Shown piece by piece: positions 2,495 to 60,393 of a stretch of 64,000 bases of DNA. The DNA comes from Octopus vulgaris (Eukaryota), in the NCBI GenBank assembly GCA_951406725.2, contig OX597816.1:46438001-46502000 (forward strand), written 5' to 3'. The translations under genes and the position numbers were made by a program. The notes below the pieces were generated by a model. That model had not been told where the DNA came from and ran no database searches. It was given only the letters and a program-made list of their open reading frames with translations. The first letter of the stretch is position 1; each line of letters starts with the position of its first letter.

Positions 2495-2529
2495 GTTTCC
2501 AACGAAGAGCTCCGCTCGAAACGTTAAAC
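2495..2529 (+). ncRNA. Second copy of the minimal hammerhead (mutated core CCAACGA)
   Basis: Same family as 11210-11395; both copies have (TA)n on both sides. Confidence 0.55.
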
Positions 2530-6447: not shown

Positions 6448-6481
6448 CTTTCCGACGAAGAACTATACTCGAAACGTCAAG
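6448..6481 (+). ncRNA. Minimal hammerhead motif, CCGA core, related family
   Basis: cttt-CCGACGA-agaactatactc-GAAACGTC-aag; the element ends at (TA)n near 6510. Confidence 0.55.
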
Positions 6482-6505
6482 CTCTCTCTCTTTTCAACCG
6501 AGCGT

Positions 6506-8118: not shown

Positions 8119-9337
8119 AATAAATAAATGGAGTTTAACGCAGGTGTAATGAAATATTTTTACTTTCGACACATGTTTCGAAAATTCCACTGATACTATT
8201 CAAAAGAATAAATGGTATAAACAATGCAATCTTCTCCTCAGGAAAGTGAAAAAAACGAAACTCGTCAATAAGACATTTTAGCAAAAAAATGATGGATTTG
8301 TATAGCGATTGACAGAACGCTATTAATATTGTTTAAAAAAACGTTATATGATATAACGTCATAAGTAGCTAACAGAAAGAGTAGGGATATTAATAGTGAA
8401 TGTTAAATATAAAGGAAATTAAAGTTTAAATTATATATAATGATAGAGACTACTTATATGCACTAAATGTATGTTTTTGCCAATGCTTACATCTGTATGC
8501 TCGCTCTATAACCGTGTTTACTAGAGTATTTTTAGAAAAAATAATGAAAAATAGCTCAGAATTGCGGAGAAGACAGAATTTCTTGCCTTTGTCATATGGT
8601 ATCGAAATTGAGAGAATCAACCATTCTAAATGAAATTGTTCATTGTGGTCTTTTAAATCCCAAATCAGTTTGCTGAGACCGGTACTATTCCGTTTATTTC
8701 TATCCCTAAATGTTGAGTAATGGATAGAAATTCTTTTAGATAACTCTAACGATGTGCTTCCAATGTAAAATCGTACTTTATTACGAGTACTGATTATACA
8801 CTGGTATATAGAATTTTTAATCTTAGAGTTACTTGACATAAACTTATTCTATTGGAATTGACTTCAGATACAGTAACCTTGTTATTAATATTTCTAGAGG
8901 GTTGGATGGTATTAGCTAAATTAATGTTAGTATTAGTAAATGTATTAATATTTAACAGTTTGTTATTATGAGAAGAGATAATTTGCAAGAGATTTTTTGT
9001 GTTTGAAAAACCTATCCTAACCTTATGTGAATTGATAATAGAGTAATATCTAGAATTGTTTGGATCATTCCTAGCAATAGCTTGACGAAACAGCAGTGGG
9101 AGATTAGATTTAATTTGTCTCCCGTAAGGAATTATTAACCAAATATTTTTACTAGTATTCATAGCGTAATTACTTTTGAAGGTGTTATATTTACTTTTAG
9201 ATCGATAATAGGGGATTAAATAAGGGTTATCTGCCTTCATTCGCTTTGTATCGGTGCGTAAGTTATGTTTGTTATCAATAATTCTTTTACGACTAGAAAT
9301 CTTATCTACATTATTGAATTTACAATTAGACTGAGCC
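8119..9337 (-). mobile_element. Degenerate 5'-truncated Penelope-like element (GIY-YIG, frameshifted)
   Basis: ORFs 8794-9441 (KVRIGFSNTKNLLQIISSHN) and 8450-8839 (SIYQC...FYIGST...STGLSKLIWDLK...CLLRNSE) are homologous to the 44.6 kb PLE ORF. The 3' UTR holds a hammerhead and abuts (TA)n. Confidence 0.85.
8162..8247 (-). ncRNA. Type I hammerhead ribozyme motif
   Basis: actttc-CTGAGGA-gaa...ttc-GAAAC atgt GTC-gaaagt: canonical core, 6 bp stem I. Confidence 0.8.
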
Positions 9338-10747: not shown

Positions 10748-10787
<40 letters not shown>

Positions 10788-10789
<2 letters not shown>

Positions 10790-11190
10790 CGCAGGAGTGG
10801 CTGTGTGGTAAGTAGCTTGTTTACCAACCACATGGTCCCGGGTTCAGTCCCACTGCGTGGTACCTTGGGCAAGTGTCTTCTACTATAGCCTCGGGCCGAC
10901 CAAAGCCTTGTGAGTGGATTTGGTAGACGGAAACTGAAAGAAGCCCGTCGTATATATGTATATATATATGCGTGTGTGTGTGTGTGTCTGTGTTTGTCCC
11001 CCTAGCATTGCATGACAACCGATGCTGGTGTGTTTATGTCCCCGTTACCTAGCGGTTCGGCAAAAGAGACCGATAGAATAAGTACTGGGCTTACAAAAAG
11101 AATAAGTCCCGGGGTCGAGTTGCTCGATTAAAGGCGGTGCTCCAGCATGGCCGCAGTCAAATGACTGAAACAAGTAAAAGAGTAAAGAGT
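10788..11190 (+). mobile_element. tRNA-derived SINE family A, full length
   Basis: Head GGCGCAGGAGTGGCTGTGTGGTAAG (A box), GGTTCAGTCC (B-box-like), internal (TA)/(TG) tract, tail GACTGAAACAAGTAAAAGAG. More than 20 copies in the window. Confidence 0.9.
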
Positions 11191-11264
11191 ATATATATAT
11201 ATATATATATTTGACCGCGTGTGTACCATTGGCGATTTTTTTCCTCTGTCTTCCCTTCTCCTAT

Positions 11265-11299
11265 GTTTCCGACGAAGAGCTCCGCTCGAAACGTTAAAC
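11265..11299 (+). ncRNA. Minimal hammerhead motif, CCGA core
   Basis: gttt-CCGACGA-a-gagc tcc gctc-GAAACGTT-aaac, with loopless palindromic stem III ACGT. Confidence 0.7.
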
Positions 11300-11390
11300 C
11301 CTCCTTCTTTCCTTCTTTCCCGAGCGTCCAATAATACTATATTTGTTCCACGTCCTCGCGTTGTGTTTTTTTGTGCTTTCTTGTTTGGAT

Positions 11391-11454
<64 letters not shown>

Positions 11455-12365: not shown

Positions 12366-12725
12366 TAAAAACAAAGAAGACAGGTGTAAGAACAACAAGA
12401 AAGTGTATTAGTTTGACGCTCGGGAAAAATGGAAAAGTCTTTTACGTTTCGAACCTACACTCTTCGACAGAAAGAAATTTGAAGAAATAAATAGGGAGAG
12501 AATATAAAAAAAAACGTGTTGCATTCAGTGGTCCAACATGGCAAATGATGGACCACTGAACTCAACACGTTGTTTTCATTCTCTCTCTGTTTCCTCTTAT
12601 TCCTTTCCGTCGAAGAGCGTAGGTTCGAAACGTAAAAGACTTTTCCATTTTTCCCGAGCGTCAAACTAATACACTTGCCTGTTGTTCCTACACCTGTCTT
12701 TGTTTTTCTATAAATTTGAACTATA
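12366..12725. mobile_element. Inverted-repeat PLE-type remnant with hammerhead-like motif in both arms
   Basis: Arms ~12366-12476 and ~12600-12706; cores CTGTCGA and CCGTCGA ... GAAACGTA-aaaga. Shares the motif ccgagcgtc with the 6.5 and 11.3 kb elements. Confidence 0.6.
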
Positions 12726-18542: not shown

Positions 18543-18922
18543 TTCTATATATAAGAGATGAGGAATTGTGTACATTATTTACATTCAACGGATATTTGTC
18601 CTCATCTTGTTTGTTGTTAACACGTTTCGGCTGATATACCCTCCAGGCTTCTTCAGGTGTCTTGGGGAAATTTTGAACCTGCGTTCTCATTTATAAGGTG
18701 TTTTTCCATGTTGTCATTATTATCATTATTGTTGTTGTTGTTGTTATTGTCAGTGACCTGAACAATAATAATAATAATAACATCGAAAAATACCTTAGGA
18801 ATGAGAACCCAGGTTCGAAATTTCCCAAAGGCACCTGAAGAAGGCTGGAGGGCACATCAGCCGAAACGTTGTGTTAACAACAAACAAGATAAGGACAAAT
18901 ATCCGGCGAATGTAAATAATGT
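18543..18922. mobile_element. Palindromic hammerhead-bearing insertion with 12 bp TSD
   Basis: TSD atcctttccgag at 18531-18542 and 18923-18934; arms ~18571-18745 and ~18762-18923; interrupts the mariner transposase. Confidence 0.85.
18831..18874 (+). ncRNA. Minimal type I hammerhead motif
   Basis: gcac-CTGAAGA-a-ggctg..cagcc-GAAACGTT-gtgt. The inverted copy at ~18619-18661 lacks 3 nt at the cleavage site. Confidence 0.75.
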
Positions 18923-32992: not shown

Positions 32993-33766
32993 ATATTATT
33001 GGGGGCGCTTTATGGGGTTACTCTGGGTTTCTCGTCCATTAAGGGGTTGGTCCCTAAACCTGCTGGCAGCTAGGGCCTCGTTATAGTACGGGGCTGCTGC
33101 GTCGAAGGCTTTTTGGCTAGAAATCCTCGGAATCCTCTTACTAACATCTTTTACCAGGTTCTTGAATACAATGGGTGGGTGACAGGAGGCTGCCGATAGC
33201 CAAGATTGAAAGGAAACAATCGTTTACCATCGTTATTTTTGGTGACGGCAAGATGGCGGCGCGAACGGAAATCGATACCTTTAGCGAGGCATTTCCCCCT
33301 CCATGTTTTGACGAGGTCTTAGGCCAACAGGTTTGGGATCTAAGGCCTAATCTAGGATAACCCCATAAACCGGTCTCCTCCATTATAATATTAACTGCTC
33401 TACATCGTAGCGTGTGCTTTTTCTCCGGATTTATGTTTTCCTACAAACGATGTGTGTATGTCTGTTTTATATATATATAGTCCTGGCTGCAATGAATGGC
33501 TGAAACAAATAAAAGAACATACATACATACATACAGTCAGTTAATCAGACACACAGATGGGCTTCCAGTCATATTCCATCTACTATATTCACTCACAAAG
33601 CTTTGATCGGCGCAGAGCCATAACAGGAGACACTTGTCCAACATGCTGCGCAGTGTAAGTAAACCCGAAACTATGCCGTTTTAAAGTGGCCTTTTTAATC
33701 ACCCAGCCATAATATATAGTTTGGCTTTGAAATCATTTAAACCGTCTGGTGAAAGAATTATGTACC

Positions 33767-42010: not shown

Positions 42011-43512
42011 GGAATATTTCCCCAGGAAAATATCAGGTACCAACGACTTCTGCCTCATTGGAGTGTATTTTAAACAGGTATCACAAAAGATTATTGATTT
42101 GCCAAAGATTATTGATTTTGCTCGAGTAGGTTAAGGATTCAAAAACCACTGGCCAAGAAGAATGTGATGAAAAAGTGTATAACATAGTTTTCACCTAACA
42201 AATTCCATTCACAAAGCTCAAGTTATTTGTGAACCCAAGGCTGCTGTAGAAGACATTTACCCAAGGTAACGTGCGGTGGGATCGAACCTAGAATCATGTA
42301 ACTGCGAAACGAAATTCTTAACCACCCTTTTATATTTGTGTCTGGAATTTATTTATCTATTTCACGAAAAGGTATGATAAACATATTTTAGTCAATTCAT
42401 AGAAGGTTCATAATCAGAGGCATTCATCAACGAGAAATCATTTCTCTTGACTTTCAGCAAGATATAATTGGTGTGGTGATGCTCATGCATTTCCAGATTA
42501 AAGCACTTAGATTATAGCACATAGTTTCAGGCAAATAGAGTGGTGATATAGAGGCTTCCTGAATGTCAAGCCATCCAGGAAGCCGCTATATCGCCACTCT
42601 ATTTGCCTGAAACAGGAATTGCATATCTTAAAGATTACACCTCTACCACCTAAAAGCAAGGAAAGGATGCATTACGTAATGTAGACATAGATAATCCTAA
42701 AAAGAGGTGATAGTCACGGCTGGAACGTCGTTGGTCATAGATCTGCGCGGTGATTCCCTGGAGCGAAATCGACAAGTATAACAAATTAATTAGGTTTTAT
42801 TTGCTACAGACCTTACTCCTCAACCTAGAACCCTTGCAAATCTTAAACTGAAAATTCCGACTCTTAATCCTTTGGTTAACAACAAATATGGCTAAAGCAT
42901 GATCTATAAGAAGGGAAGAAATGCAGAAAGCCCGACATACCATAGGTATGACTAGAACTATATTACCAAATATATTCTTTCTTTATTCAAGACAGTTGTG
43001 TGCGATTTGAGGGATATTTGACATCTATTTCTAATAAACCCATCGGCCATATTAAGGGCCTCCTTGTCGGCTTTTATATCTATAACATTATGGCAAATGA
43101 TGTAGTATCGATTATCATTTCCCGATAACCCAATCTGTGGCTGACGTTGATGCTATTTCACTTACAGCTTAATCGGAATTGGCCTTGGGCTAAGCAACAC
43201 AACTAAAGCTAGTTGCTTATCAGCACCCGTCTCTTTTAAAATTATATTCCACAAAAACCATTGAACTCAACACTGCAAATTAACGTAGCACTCCTGAAAT
43301 TTTGGGTCTTCCCGCTACCTGCAGCAATCAGTAATTTAGCTCTGCAGTACTTATTTGCAGGTGAGTGAACAAGAGCACTGGACGTTAAGGGTACTGGCAA
43401 CGCATCGTTAAACACAGGTGACTCAACTAGGTCTGTCGATCTACTATGAGTAGTGACCAAATTTTCAAACCCCACCGCAAAGAAGAACACTTTGGATAAT
43501 GTTGTCCCTGAT

Positions 43513-43617
<105 letters not shown>

Positions 43618-43706
43618 GGTAAGATAACAAAAGAAAGAAAGAGACCTCAATATTATGTAAATAGAGGAAATTTATCTATACAATATGTTACATTACTCGG
43701 TAGTCA

Positions 43707-43769
43707 AGATAAAACTCTGAGTTTCAGATGCCGAAGTGGAAATCCACAACACCATCTCTTCGGTTATCT
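43707..43769 (-). ncRNA. Mirror copy of the CCGA-core hammerhead motif
   Basis: Reverse complement of 45234-45296. Confidence 0.7.
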
Positions 43770-43964
43770 GGCTATTTGAAAACGTTATGAAAAAATACCG
43801 TTAAAAATGAAGGGAAATTACTCTGTTATAACTCTGCTTTGCCTGCGTACTTATACATCGCTCGCATTTTTCGTCATAAAAATTATATAAAAATACATAA
43901 AAAATATATAAAAATATATAAAAATATATAAAATCTTCTTGGGACATAACACAGAAAGCATGTT

Positions 43965-44498
43965 CTATCCGTTTTCTTTAGGGGACCAAAAACGTAACAG
44001 AAATTTAGTCACATGTGGGCATGATCCGAAAAGTTCTGTCCTTGTATTTAGACATGTGGTAGGGTCTAAGCTGCTTTTCCAGATAAGCCATCTCTCCATG
44101 TCGCATAAACCGCACCTTCCGCTGCCGTTAGTATAGGGCTTACATCTGGCCAAAATCTTCCATTGTATGTTATAATCGACACCTTTATCTCTTAAAGACC
44201 AAATATGATTGGATAATTGTGTCGCTTTTCTTTTGTTCCAGTGCCTAAAGCTCAAAGTGTGGTTATTGAACCTGGTCTTGAAATTACCCTCTGTCAGGCC
44301 CACGTATTTCTTCGTCAAAACGGTGTCTTTAGTGGTTATAGAGTTTACGGTAGCCTCATATATGATGGTCTTGGACATGCAAGCTCCATTTAGCGGGCAC
44401 AATTCTTTATTCCTGCATGAACAGCTGTTTTCTTCTTGTGTTTTTTGTATGTTATGATTGATTATGTTTTTAAAATTGGTAGTTGAACTAAAACTAAT
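43965..44498 (-). CDS. Mirror copy of the truncated PLE GIY-YIG ORF
   Basis: Reverse complement of 44505-45038 with one amino acid difference (KTRF vs KARF). Confidence 0.85.
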   Translation of the reverse strand: MSFSSTTNFKNIINHNIQKTQEENSCSCRNKELCPLNGACMSKTIIYEATVNSITTKDTVLTKKYVGLTEGNFKTRFNNHTLSFRHWNKRKATQLSNHIWSLRDKGVDYNIQWKILARCKPYTNGSGRCGLCDMERWLIWKSSLDPTTCLNTRTELFGSCPHVTKFLLRFWSPKENG

Positions 44499-44504
44499 TT
44501 TTAA

Positions 44505-45038
44505 ATTAGTTTTAGTTCAACTACCAATTTTAAAAACATAATCAATCATAACATACAAAAAACACAAGAAGAAAACAGCTGTTCATGCAGGAATAAAGAA
44601 TTGTGCCCGCTAAATGGAGCTTGCATGTCCAAGACCATCATATATGAGGCTACCGTAAACTCTATAACCACTAAAGACACCGTTTTGACGAAGAAATACG
44701 TGGGCCTGACAGAGGGTAATTTCAAGGCCAGGTTCAATAACCACACTTTGAGCTTTAGGCACTGGAACAAAAGAAAAGCGACACAATTATCCAATCATAT
44801 TTGGTCTTTAAGAGATAAAGGTGTCGATTATAACATACAATGGAAGATTTTGGCCAGATGTAAGCCCTATACTAACGGCAGCGGAAGGTGCGGTTTATGC
44901 GACATGGAGAGATGGCTTATCTGGAAAAGCAGCTTAGACCCTACCACATGTCTAAATACAAGGACAGAACTTTTCGGATCATGCCCACATGTGACTAAAT
45001 TTCTGTTACGTTTTTGGTCCCCTAAAGAAAACGGATAG
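44505..45038 (+). CDS. Truncated PLE ORF C-terminus: linker plus GIY-YIG endonuclease (no start codon)
   Basis: Frame is open from the hairpin tip: ISFSSTTNFKNIINHN...CSCRNKELCPLNGAC...IIYEATV...KYVGLTEGNFKARFNNH...CGLCDMERWLI...LNTRTE. The CxCx5C linker fits Nematis-type PLEs as I recall them. Confidence 0.85.
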   Translation: MSFSSTTNFKNIINHNIQKTQEENSCSCRNKELCPLNGACMSKTIIYEATVNSITTKDTVLTKKYVGLTEGNFKARFNNHTLSFRHWNKRKATQLSNHIWSLRDKGVDYNIQWKILARCKPYTNGSGRCGLCDMERWLIWKSSLDPTTCLNTRTELFGSCPHVTKFLLRFWSPKENG

Positions 45039-45233
45039 AACATGCTTTCTGTGTTATGTCCCAAGAAGATTTTATATATTTTTATATATTTTTATATATT
45101 TTTTATGTATTTTTATATAATTTTTATGACGAAAAATGCGAGCGATGTATAAGTACGCAGGCAAAGCAGAGTTATAACAGAGTAATTTCCCTTCATTTTT
45201 AACGGTATTTTTTCATAACGTTTTCAAATAGCC

Positions 45234-45296
45234 AGATAACCGAAGAGATGGTGTTGTGGATTTCCACTTCGGCATCTGAAACTCAGAGTTTTATCT
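45234..45296 (+). ncRNA. Type I hammerhead ribozyme motif, CCGA core variant
   Basis: agataa-CCGAAGA-gatg..catc-t-GAA-ACTC a GAGT-T-ttatct. Stem I agataa/ttatct, stem II gatg/catc, stem III ACTC/GAGT. Lies in the PLE 3' UTR. Confidence 0.7.
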
Positions 45297-45325
45297 TGAC
45301 TACCGAGTAATGTAACATATTGTAT

Positions 45326-45384
<59 letters not shown>

Positions 45385-45386
<2 letters not shown>

Positions 45387-45755
45387 CACAGGAGTAGCTG
45401 TGTGGTAAGTAGCTTGCTTAACAACCACAGTCCCGGGTTCAGTCCAACTGCGTGGCACCTTGGGCAAGTGTCTTCTACTATAGCCTCGGGCCGACCAAAG
45501 CCTTGTGAGTGGATTTGGTAGACGGAAACTGGAAGAAGCTCGTCGTATATGTATATATGTGTGTGTGTGTGTTTGTCCTCCCTACATCGCTTGACAACCG
45601 TGTGTTTACGTCCCCGTAACTTGGCGGTTCGGCAAAAGAGACCGATAGAATAAGTACTAGGTTTACAAAGACAAAGCTCTGGGGTCGATTTGCTCGACTA
45701 TAAAGGCGGTGCTCCAGCATGGCCGCAGTCAAATGACTGAAACAAGTAAAAGAGT
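45385..45755 (+). mobile_element. SINE family A
   Basis: Full-length copy within (TA)n. Confidence 0.9.
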
Positions 45756-47126
45756 ATATATATATATATATAAGACACGATAGACGTGGCTGGAGAGCCT
45801 TTGCTCATATATCATTTGTTTAGTCAAAGTAGACCTGGGGTTAAACAACAATTTAGGGCAGTGTCATTGTATGCTTATTTACCTATTTGATTTACCTTAT
45901 AAAATGATACTTCTACGTTCGTTTTGTTCGGTTCACCTCAACATACGCTATGTCACCGCTTATAAATAGGTGCAGTAGTCATAACACATAGTGTTTGCAA
46001 AGGCGAATACAGGTTTTTAACGACAATAACAACAATTTCAACCACAAGAACAGCAACACTTTTTTTACTGTAATATTTACATTAATTTCTAACACCAAAC
46101 GTTTGCTTAAATGATTGTGTACTATAAAGAAATATTTTAATGTTTATTTGTTAGTTTTCTTCTTTTTTAATTTTTTTTTTTTTTTTTTTTCCACAAGAAT
46201 AACATAACATGGACAAATATTGATAAATTTACATTTGGTTGTTGAATTAATGCACTGGATATGTTTGGTCTAACAAGCTGCAGGTAAAGTATTTTTGAAG
46301 AGAGTAGGCGAGAGTAAATCAAGTTAGTATATTTATACCTAGGCTTGGTTTTTACTTTGCTGAACCCAAGTGTAATGTTTCTCACTTACAATATTTATAA
46401 AAATCATAGATGGCTGTTTGTTGAACATATTTTATGTGTCAGACAAAGGGAAATGAAGTCGACCTGTTATAAAGTCAGCGGAAGCTGATGTGACCGGAAG
46501 TTAATACACTATGATAATACGAAAATTAATATCGATCGATTTGTCAGTATTGAACTTGATTTGTTTTGCTTTTAAACTCGTTAACAACCATAGCAGCAAG
46601 AATAGTTTTACCACTAATGACTATTTAATTGTTACAAAGCTAATTTTGAAGATAAGAATAAAAGACCAAGTGAGCCATTGCAAATTTGAATACATGAATG
46701 TTGTTCCAACAACTGTATGGCTCACTTGGTAGAATTCTAAATACAAGTCCGGTTAGTTTTGTTCAGAATCATATCGCTACATTATACAACGGCATCTGGT
46801 TTGTGGTCAAAGGAAACGGCCATCTGTCAGTCTCTTAAGAATTCACCCCTCTTGATGCTTTTGTAAGACGCATGGTCACCAAAACTGGTCTACAGATGCG
46901 ACCATGACGTAAGTGAAGGAGAAATTGTTTTAAAAAGGAACGAAAGTAAGGGTTTAAAACTGGCGTATTGATTCAGATGAGAAGTAACTTTTCTGCAGCA
47001 GCGGTCGCCTACCTTTTTTGCACGACAGACCACTTTCATGCAACGTAATTTTTTTATGGACTAGGGGATCATTTGCGCAATAAAACACAATAAAGTGCAT
47101 TAGAATACATACATACATACATACAT

Positions 47127-60320: not shown

Positions 60321-60393
60321 CGACCACAACGAGACTCGAACTCGCAATCTTCTGATTCGAAGTCAGACGCCTTATCCATTAGGCCATGCGGCC
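60321..60393 (-). tRNA. tRNA-Arg, anticodon TCG
   Basis: Minus strand reads GGCCGCATGGCCTAATGGATAAGGCGTCTGACTTCGAATCAGAAGATTGCGAGTTCGAGTCTCGTTGTGGTCG (73 nt). Acceptor stem GGCCGCA/TGTGGTC, anticodon arm TCTGA-CT-TCG-AA-TCAGA, T arm GCGAG-TTCGAGT-CTCGT; A and B boxes intact. Confidence 0.95.

Follow-up and report, generated by a model that had tools for sequence, protein, structure and literature searches.

Hammerhead ribozymes of Penelope-like elements

The hammerhead ribozymes of metazoan Penelope-like elements have no stable helix III, are weak, and cleave as dimers through a palindrome (Cervera and De la Pena 2014, PMC4209133). The core variant given in the available text of that report is a compensatory U3-A8 combination. 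The element PAc of Anolis, a member of the Poseidon clade, carries a hammerhead in its terminal repeat and leaves a tail signature; its ribozyme needs the element's protein, and ribozyme mutants still insert in vitro (Frangieh et al. 2024, PMC11167929). PAc is therefore a model for protein-assisted cutting that is dispensable for insertion. Craig and coworkers (2021, PMC8557442) printed a search descriptor that contains the string cuganga and reported that Naiads proliferate without canonical hammerheads.

The second base of the CUGA turn, U4, is changed to C (U4C) in one viroid hammerhead variant, where activity in vitro is considerably lower but infectivity is still allowed (Ambros and Flores 1998, as related in the available part of PMC3088659). 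Deep mutagenesis gave low activity for every single mutant and every double mutant of the CUGA turn except the C3-G8 swap (PMC9901934, in part).

A literature search that left aside most subscription journals and the alignments in supplementary figures returned no report of U4C fixed in a retroelement. Lunse et al. reportedly described, in 2017, small hammerheads with a diminished stem III, an association with Penelope-like elements and cleavage as dimers, features that the motifs considered here would share. Already known are the minimal architecture with its extra core nucleotide and palindromic stem III, its association with Penelope-like elements, and U4C as a viroid variant. Apparently new, as it was not found in the searches, is the fixation of U4C in thousands of copies belonging to two Penelope-like clades, one subfamily among them being recently active.

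Hammerhead motifs in the window

The window is a stretch of 64,000 nucleotides (64 kb) from Octopus vulgaris (contig OX597816.1, positions 46,438,001 to 46,502,000), and coordinates below are its own. A preliminary description had noted the core CCGANGA in place of CUGANGA, and its letters and coordinates are correct: CCGACGA at 11269 and 6452, CCGAAGA at 45240 and, on the minus strand, 43763, CCAACGA at 2499 and CCGTCGA at 12607. The features are collected in Table 1.

Table 1. Hammerhead-type motifs and the insertions that carry them in the window
Position	Strand	Feature	Relatives
2495..2529	+	Second copy of subfamily 1a; CCAACGA, that is CCGACGA with a CpG-type G5A change, predicted dead	G5A in 5/70 subfamily copies
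6448..6482	+	Decayed copy of the older Neptune-type subfamily 1b; CCGACGA, broken stem II	CCGA in 9/16 intact relatives
11212..11395	+	Terminal-repeat fragment, 5'-truncated, Neptune-type lineage, subfamily 1a (CCGA), flanked by (TA)n tracts	
11265..11299	+	U4C motif, 35-nt minimal type I hammerhead	Subfamily 1a; position 4 is C in 67/70 copies
12440..12474	-	Inverted neighbour of the 12607 motif, CTGTCGA	
12603..12637	+	Neptune-type copy, subfamily 1c, in which the usual core is CTGTCGA (A6U); sporadic C4	
43614..45333	.	Fold-back insertion, 5'-truncated, youngest Hydra-type subfamily, between (TA)n tracts	
43707..43769	-	Mirror of the 45240 motif in the left arm	
45234..45296	+	Hydra-type U4C motif, core CCGAAGA at 45240-45246	

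The 11269 motif is parsed as GTTT / CCGACGA / A / GAGC-TCC-GCTC / GAA / ACGT / T / AAAC: the core (11269-11275) is followed by an extra A, stem II (GAGC/GCTC, capped by a loop of 3 nt) and GAA, stem III is a loopless ACGT, H17 is T, and stem I is GTTT/AAAC, with the predicted cut after T11295. In the 45240 motif stem II is GATG/CATC plus one extra pyrimidine at 45277, stem III is the palindromic ACTC-A-GAGT, stem I has 6 bp (AGATAA/TTATCT), and the cut is predicted after T45290. Compared with the consensus C3 U4 G5 A6 N7 G8 A9 ... G12 A13 A14 A15.1 U16.1 H17, both motifs keep the other ten invariant positions and have C at U4. The CCGA motifs are variants, not canonical members, of the type I hammerhead.

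A stem-checking descriptor was applied to the 13 CCGANGA sites of the window and to 100 block-shuffled windows. Three sites (11269, 45240 and 43763) passed, against 0.01 matches per 64 kb in the shuffled control, and thus the CCGANGA hammerhead motifs are not due to chance. The same three have the type I order, with three helices round the core, so the earlier statement that the stems are preserved holds for them; it fails for 6452, which lacks the descriptor match and whose stem II (GAAC..ACTC) retains 2/4 pairs. Both palindrome arms had been offered as evidence and both do carry CCGAAGA, but 45240 and 43763 come from a single insertion and count as one observation.

The motifs resemble the minimal hammerheads of PMC4209133, as far as its available text describes them, in their type I order, loopless or palindromic helix III and short helix I, and the elements resemble those of that report in the terminal-repeat location and in consisting mostly of solitary truncated copies and inverted pairs. 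The 11269 motif also shares the extra nucleotide between 9 and 10.1 and the G10.1-C11.1 pair, which lies next to G12. The Hydra-type lineage has an extra pyrimidine before G12 (C in subfamilies B-D, T in E-F), which would be a bulge or form a G-U pair. The palindromic 15.2-16.2 segments, ACGT and ACTC-A-GAGT, permit constrained dimer folds for both motifs. The extreme minimality of the loopless ACGT unit at 11269 and the possible dimer dependence, both pointed out earlier, are already published for Penelope-like hammerheads (PMC4209133, in part). Unlike the compensatory U3-A8 variant described there, U4C is uncompensated and fixed in thousands of copies; and whereas the viroid change, identical in the core and described as much weaker in vitro yet viable in vivo, is one variant of one viroid hammerhead, here it is a genome-amplified trait of minimal hammerheads.

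Descriptors built on CUGA would skip U4C motifs, as had been predicted; the published string cuganga (PMC8557442, in part) is an example. Rfam named no hammerhead among the matches listed (150 of 200) for the whole window, nor any hammerhead family at E<=10 for 11230-11340, for 45200-45320 and for a CTGA sister in locus L126. Because the CTGA sister is missed as well, the Rfam miss is not caused by U4C. In viral contigs there were 59 pattern matches, and 0 passed the stem descriptor.

The window holds other features. An inverted pair at 18835(+) and 18656(-) belongs to a further minimal hammerhead family, with canonical CTGAAGA and an ACGT stem III, and its plus-strand copy passes the descriptor; 11966(-) and 27152(+) are further CTGANGA hammerhead-like candidates with a longer palindromic stem III. 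A tRNA gene lies at 60321-60393 (-) (Rfam, 66.6 bits; anticodon UCG by eye), and an inverted repeat of 42 nt, 93% complementary with arms 6 nt apart, at 42524-42613. An abundant SINE-like repeat occupies at least 20 places (e.g. 10785-11213 and 45382-45768), one of them directly upstream of the 11269 element.

The Neptune-type lineage

The lineage of 11269, 2499, 6452 and 12607 is a Neptune-type Penelope-like lineage judging by its protein motifs, a label under which Neptune and Nematis are not separated by a tree. Long relatives of the fragment at 11212..11395 carry RT and GIY-YIG remnants. One of them, a CTGA sister (L250), has a broken-frame RT with DKG, a C-x4-C-x2-C linker and GIY-YIG with CCHH, and its RT matches RVT_1 at E=1.5e-5, short of the curated cut-off. 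Over 358 bp of the RT/GIY-YIG region of L250, a CCGA copy (L249) is 91.6% identical. Most Neptune-type copies are about 200-250 bp long and lie between microsatellites. The 5' ends of subfamily 1a (L291-L380) cluster near ATGTGACC, some 75-85 nt upstream of the core, so that the unit is SINE-like and 250 bp long.

Copies were sought in the genome (2.8 Gb, 227 contigs). A pattern with positions 4, 5 and 7 free had 6,916 exact matches, and the first 100 listed comprised 59 CCGA, 35 CTGA, 3 CCAA, 2 CAGA and 1 CTAA; reversed control patterns of both lineages had zero genome matches. In 126 units, those with the upstream diagnostic TCTCC had C at position 4 in 61 cases, T in 6 and A in 1, whereas those with the other diagnostic had 3 C and 40 T; 15 were unclassified. 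C4 is linked to the flanking diagnostic, and the split follows the subfamily. A tree of 216 Neptune-type units agrees in that the position-4 label is strongly clustered (0/500 shuffles as low), and it does not decide whether the 6452 subfamily represents a separate gain of U4C. That subfamily (1b) is older, with CCGA in 9 of 16 intact matches.

Subfamily 1a was sampled without bias for the core, copies being chosen only by a downstream 46-mer (70 of 1,676 matches). C4 was present in 67, T in 3 and G5A in 5. Since CCAA (5) and CTGA (3) are about equally frequent, they fit symmetric CpG decay from CCGA, which also accounts for 2499: it keeps the C by its letters, as had been claimed, but has lost the invariant G5. 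Identity to the majority was 0.98 for CCGA copies (n=68), a figure inflated because many of the 68 were drawn from the 30 best BLAST matches, compared with 0.95 for CTGA copies (n=45).

The 12607 motif had been counted among those that keep the C, and here the claim fails: the first 100 listed of the 403 matches of subfamily 1c have T4 in 93 and C in 5, and the inverted neighbour at 12470(-) reads CTG. Another core change, A6U (CTGTCGA), is fixed in subfamily 1c (L219-L248), where 94 of the same 100 listed matches carry it. Related CTGTAGA and CTGTTGA copies exist beside it.

The Hydra-type lineage

The palindrome at 43670-45333 has arms of 831 nt that are 100% complementary. Each arm of the fold-back insertion comprises ORF codons 538-717, the GIY-YIG part of the frame (44496-45035 on the plus strand and 44507-43968 on the minus strand), the 3' UTR and the hammerhead motif; over 744 nt it matches an intact unit at 99.6-99.7% identity. 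Genome matches to a 19-mer in which positions 4 and 7 were left free numbered 4,783, with CCGA in 93 of the first 100 listed; this pattern favours the younger Hydra-type subfamilies. Older CTGA relatives are abundant (3,200 matches). The copies are inserted at (TA)n and occur as inverted pairs and as tandem arrays with a period of 2,580 bp. In the youngest subfamily, F, the 2,580-bp units are 98-100% identical and form multi-unit arrays; the 717-codon open frame is intact in 2 of the units examined and broken in others.

The 717-codon frame of one genomic locus (L132), read by eye, has RWK, DKT, a CxCX5C linker, CxxC and CxH, has no CCHH, and is a single ORF of less than 3 kb. By these motifs the 45240/43763 insertion belongs to the Hydra clade of Penelope-like elements as defined in the available part of PMC8557442, which describes the same features for that clade, including Hydra-1_Obim, together with (TA)n insertion, an inverted 5'-truncated partner and, in 5/26 rows, an ACTC-N-GAGT stem III. 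No Pfam family was named for the ORF, and no name was attached to any of the 120 homologues listed of 1,023. Weaker tblastn matches to the ORF at 33047-33205 (54%) and 8474-8794 (33%) in the window are remnants of other Penelope-like families.

The octopus lineage departs from the described clade in its core. The canonical hammerhead is described as universal in the Hydra clade, CTGA standing in 26/26 Hydra rows of File S2 (PMC8557442, in part), and three metagenome relatives of the element also have CTGA; here subfamilies A-C have CTGA, but D-F have CCGA.

In each Hydra-type inverted pair (for example window 43614-45333 and those in loci L133-L142) one arm stops close to element position 90-93, and its partner extends beyond 157. 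These uneven ends are the two-ended tail signature of Penelope-like insertions. The element is carried by 14 runs guessed to be RNA, seen as contigs, which cannot show strand, level or ends. One contig of such a run (L131:3248-3379, run X9) has a cluster of about 15 A-to-G differences, which may be the product of double-stranded RNA editing of inverted copies or may reflect a diverged copy.

Fixation of U4C in successive subfamilies

When 105 Hydra-type units were sorted into a ladder by letters outside position 4 (10 unclassified), C4 was found in 0/5 units of subfamily A, 0/7 of B, 1/30 of C, 9/10 of D, 10/10 of E and 33/33 of F, that is, in 52/53 of the three youngest compared with 1/42 of the three older. 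Median identity to the majority is 0.895, 0.942, 0.942, 0.953, 0.977 and 1.000 from A to F. The tree places 31 of the 35 CCGA rows in one clade (support 99/97) among CTGA rows. Ladder and tree together indicate that a source element acquired U4C at the C-to-D step and passed it on to three later subfamilies. T at 45241 at a level of at least 3% was not found in the contigs of four further runs, and its absence from these independent contigs argues against an assembly artefact.

U4C is a trait of subfamilies in two unrelated lineages, common to thousands of copies. The earlier proposal that at least two unrelated families are involved is thus confirmed, the families being the Neptune-type and the Hydra-type. 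Fixation, not decay, is upheld at the level of subfamilies; it is not family-wide, large CTGA sisters being present in both lineages. The argument from mutation bias by which fixation had been reached is weak, as CpG depletion is slight (observed/expected 0.87 in the window; departures of 0.038 at CpG sites vs 0.021 elsewhere), although its conclusion holds.

A sporadic origin, by decay of canonical hammerheads after insertion or by chance, is true for 12607, and T-to-C changes at TpG are indeed seen at a level of a few percent. C4 in 67/70 and 52/53 copies, together with the shuffled and reversed controls, rules it out for 11269, 2499, 45240 and 43763, and as a general account it is hardly credible.

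The pattern of fixation also bears on the possibility that U4C was positively selected as a brake, such that less cutting would yield longer multi-unit templates that out-copy CUGA relatives. The CCGA subfamilies are the most homogeneous of those sampled in both lineages, the new CpG survived unreverted in three subfamilies in succession as CpG sites nearby decayed, and subfamily F makes multi-unit arrays. But other CpG sites persisted too, CTGA subfamilies likewise reached thousands of copies, two or three origins are explicable by drift in single source elements, and the Neptune-type tree gives no direction of change at position 4. Selection of this kind appears improbable.

Constraint on the fold

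The fold is probably still under some constraint. Of the 86 columns, 46 belong to the core and stems, and none of the 7 lineage changes after U4C fell there (P=0.005; treating position 38 as stem gives P=0.037; a small, post hoc sample). Within the core alone, 0/7 changes in 10 columns is uninformative (P=0.42), and thus the stems may be kept for protein binding. Over the whole ladder, 1/34 changes fell in 11 core columns (P=0.057, likewise small and post hoc). Between subfamilies A and B, stem I shows covariation (A-U replaced by G-C), and at the step where U4C became fixed a G-A mismatch also became A-U, adding a sixth pair to stem I. In E and F the base before G12 is T in place of C, and one of the pairs within stem II was lost.

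The free dimer fold of the 45240 motif has the helix layout of a double hammerhead and lies 6 kcal/mol from the core-open form, while the hammerhead dimer of 11269 is about 18 kcal/mol above its predicted free fold; the CTGA sisters of 11269 are no better, at about 21. In the Hydra-type family, with 33/68 rows skipped, the gap was 6.0 for the youngest copies (n=14), 10.0 for older CCGA (n=7) and 6.45 for CTGA (n=14). In family 1a it was 17.6 for CCGA (n=34) vs 20.6 for CTGA (n=19). The gap does not separate CCGA from CTGA in either lineage. Sequestration of CCGAAG by CTTCGG of stem II was considered and rejected as a main effect, its pairing probability being about 0.12.

These observations bear on a further explanation, that the CCGA motifs are catalytically dead, cleavage being unneeded and the fold kept as a protein landing site near the start of reverse transcription or simply inherited. 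The weakening changes in E and F and the fixation of a second core change, A6U, in another subfamily would fit it, as would the low activity of CUGA-turn mutants (PMC9901934, in part), the in vitro insertion of ribozyme mutants (PMC11167929, in part) and the spread of Naiads (PMC8557442, in part). It is harder to reconcile with the alteration of the same position in two unrelated lineages, a position at which the change is tolerated in a viroid (PMC3088659, in part), with the near absence of core changes over the ladder and with the sparing of the stems after U4C.

Possible traces of cutting among genomic copies

Among short copies, 5' ends did not pile up at the predicted cut (1/68 young Hydra-type copies; 0/70 of subfamily 1a), as a dead ribozyme would predict. 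But the CTGA control is equally without pile-up (1/30), so this test does not discriminate, and the canonical anole ribozyme also shows no read ends at its own site (PMC11167929, in part). Full-length 5' ends of subfamily F were sampled from part of one contig (C1). Six copies reach the upstream motif, and 2 of them, L132:3715(-) and L137:5385(-), have their start 4 and 16 nt beyond the predicted cut; both are full-length Hydra-type copies at fold-back junctions. Under different assumed truncation rates, the probability of two such stops ranges from 0.016 to 0.26. These two ends could reflect cutting, which would count weakly against a dead ribozyme, or a transcription start, which would look no different. 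In 8/10 passages, long copies continue through the upstream motif. A dead ribozyme seems rather unlikely, though it deserves serious consideration.

A slowed ribozyme as the probable explanation

The place of the motif in the element, the subfamily-wide C4, T4 in the older Hydra-type subfamilies and the later continued amplification are observed. On balance we lean towards reading the CCGA motifs as slowed ribozymes that depend on dimers or on protein, fixed by founder effect and tolerated since copying would use mostly uncut RNA. On this account U4C would have had at least two origins in source elements, one in each lineage, followed by spread through founder effect; if reverse transcription mostly copies uncut RNA, a low cutting rate would cost little, and cutting by the U4C ribozyme would require either dimerization or the protein of the element. 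The earlier suggestion that such ribozymes are attenuated is plausible.

The slowed-ribozyme reading draws on the weak but viable viroid U4C, the dimer-dependent minimal hammerheads and the protein-assisted anole ribozyme of the literature, although PAc is of a different clade and the available part of its report makes no mention of a U4 change. The run-through of the upstream motif in most passages of long copies also argues for it, as does the double-hammerhead layout of the free dimer fold of 45240. Against it stand the low activity of CUGA-turn mutants, the C-to-T change before G12 and the lost stem II pair in E-F, the height of the 11269 hammerhead dimer above its free fold and the short copies without pile-up at the cut; the fixation of A6U in another subfamily looks like general relaxation.

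A bolder version holds that U4C is a recurrent, selected rheostat, on which clades converge to damp or protein-gate self-cleavage, damped lineages becoming the active ones. We think this doubtful. If it were true, surveys restricted to CUGA would miss some families that rank among the most active.

Implications for Penelope-like elements

Descriptors restricted to CUGA overlook thousands of motifs in this one genome. The role of hammerheads for Penelope-like elements is an open question (PMC8557442 and PMC11167929, in their available parts), and the octopus genome offers a matched natural series for it, in which the CUGA ancestors of an element exist side by side with its CCGA descendants, the youngest with intact ORFs. 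A natural test is thereby available of whether these elements need RNA cutting at all. If the CCGA form cuts, a supposedly invariant core base would be dispensable in vivo in an animal retroelement; if it is dead, a recently active element would carry a dead ribozyme.
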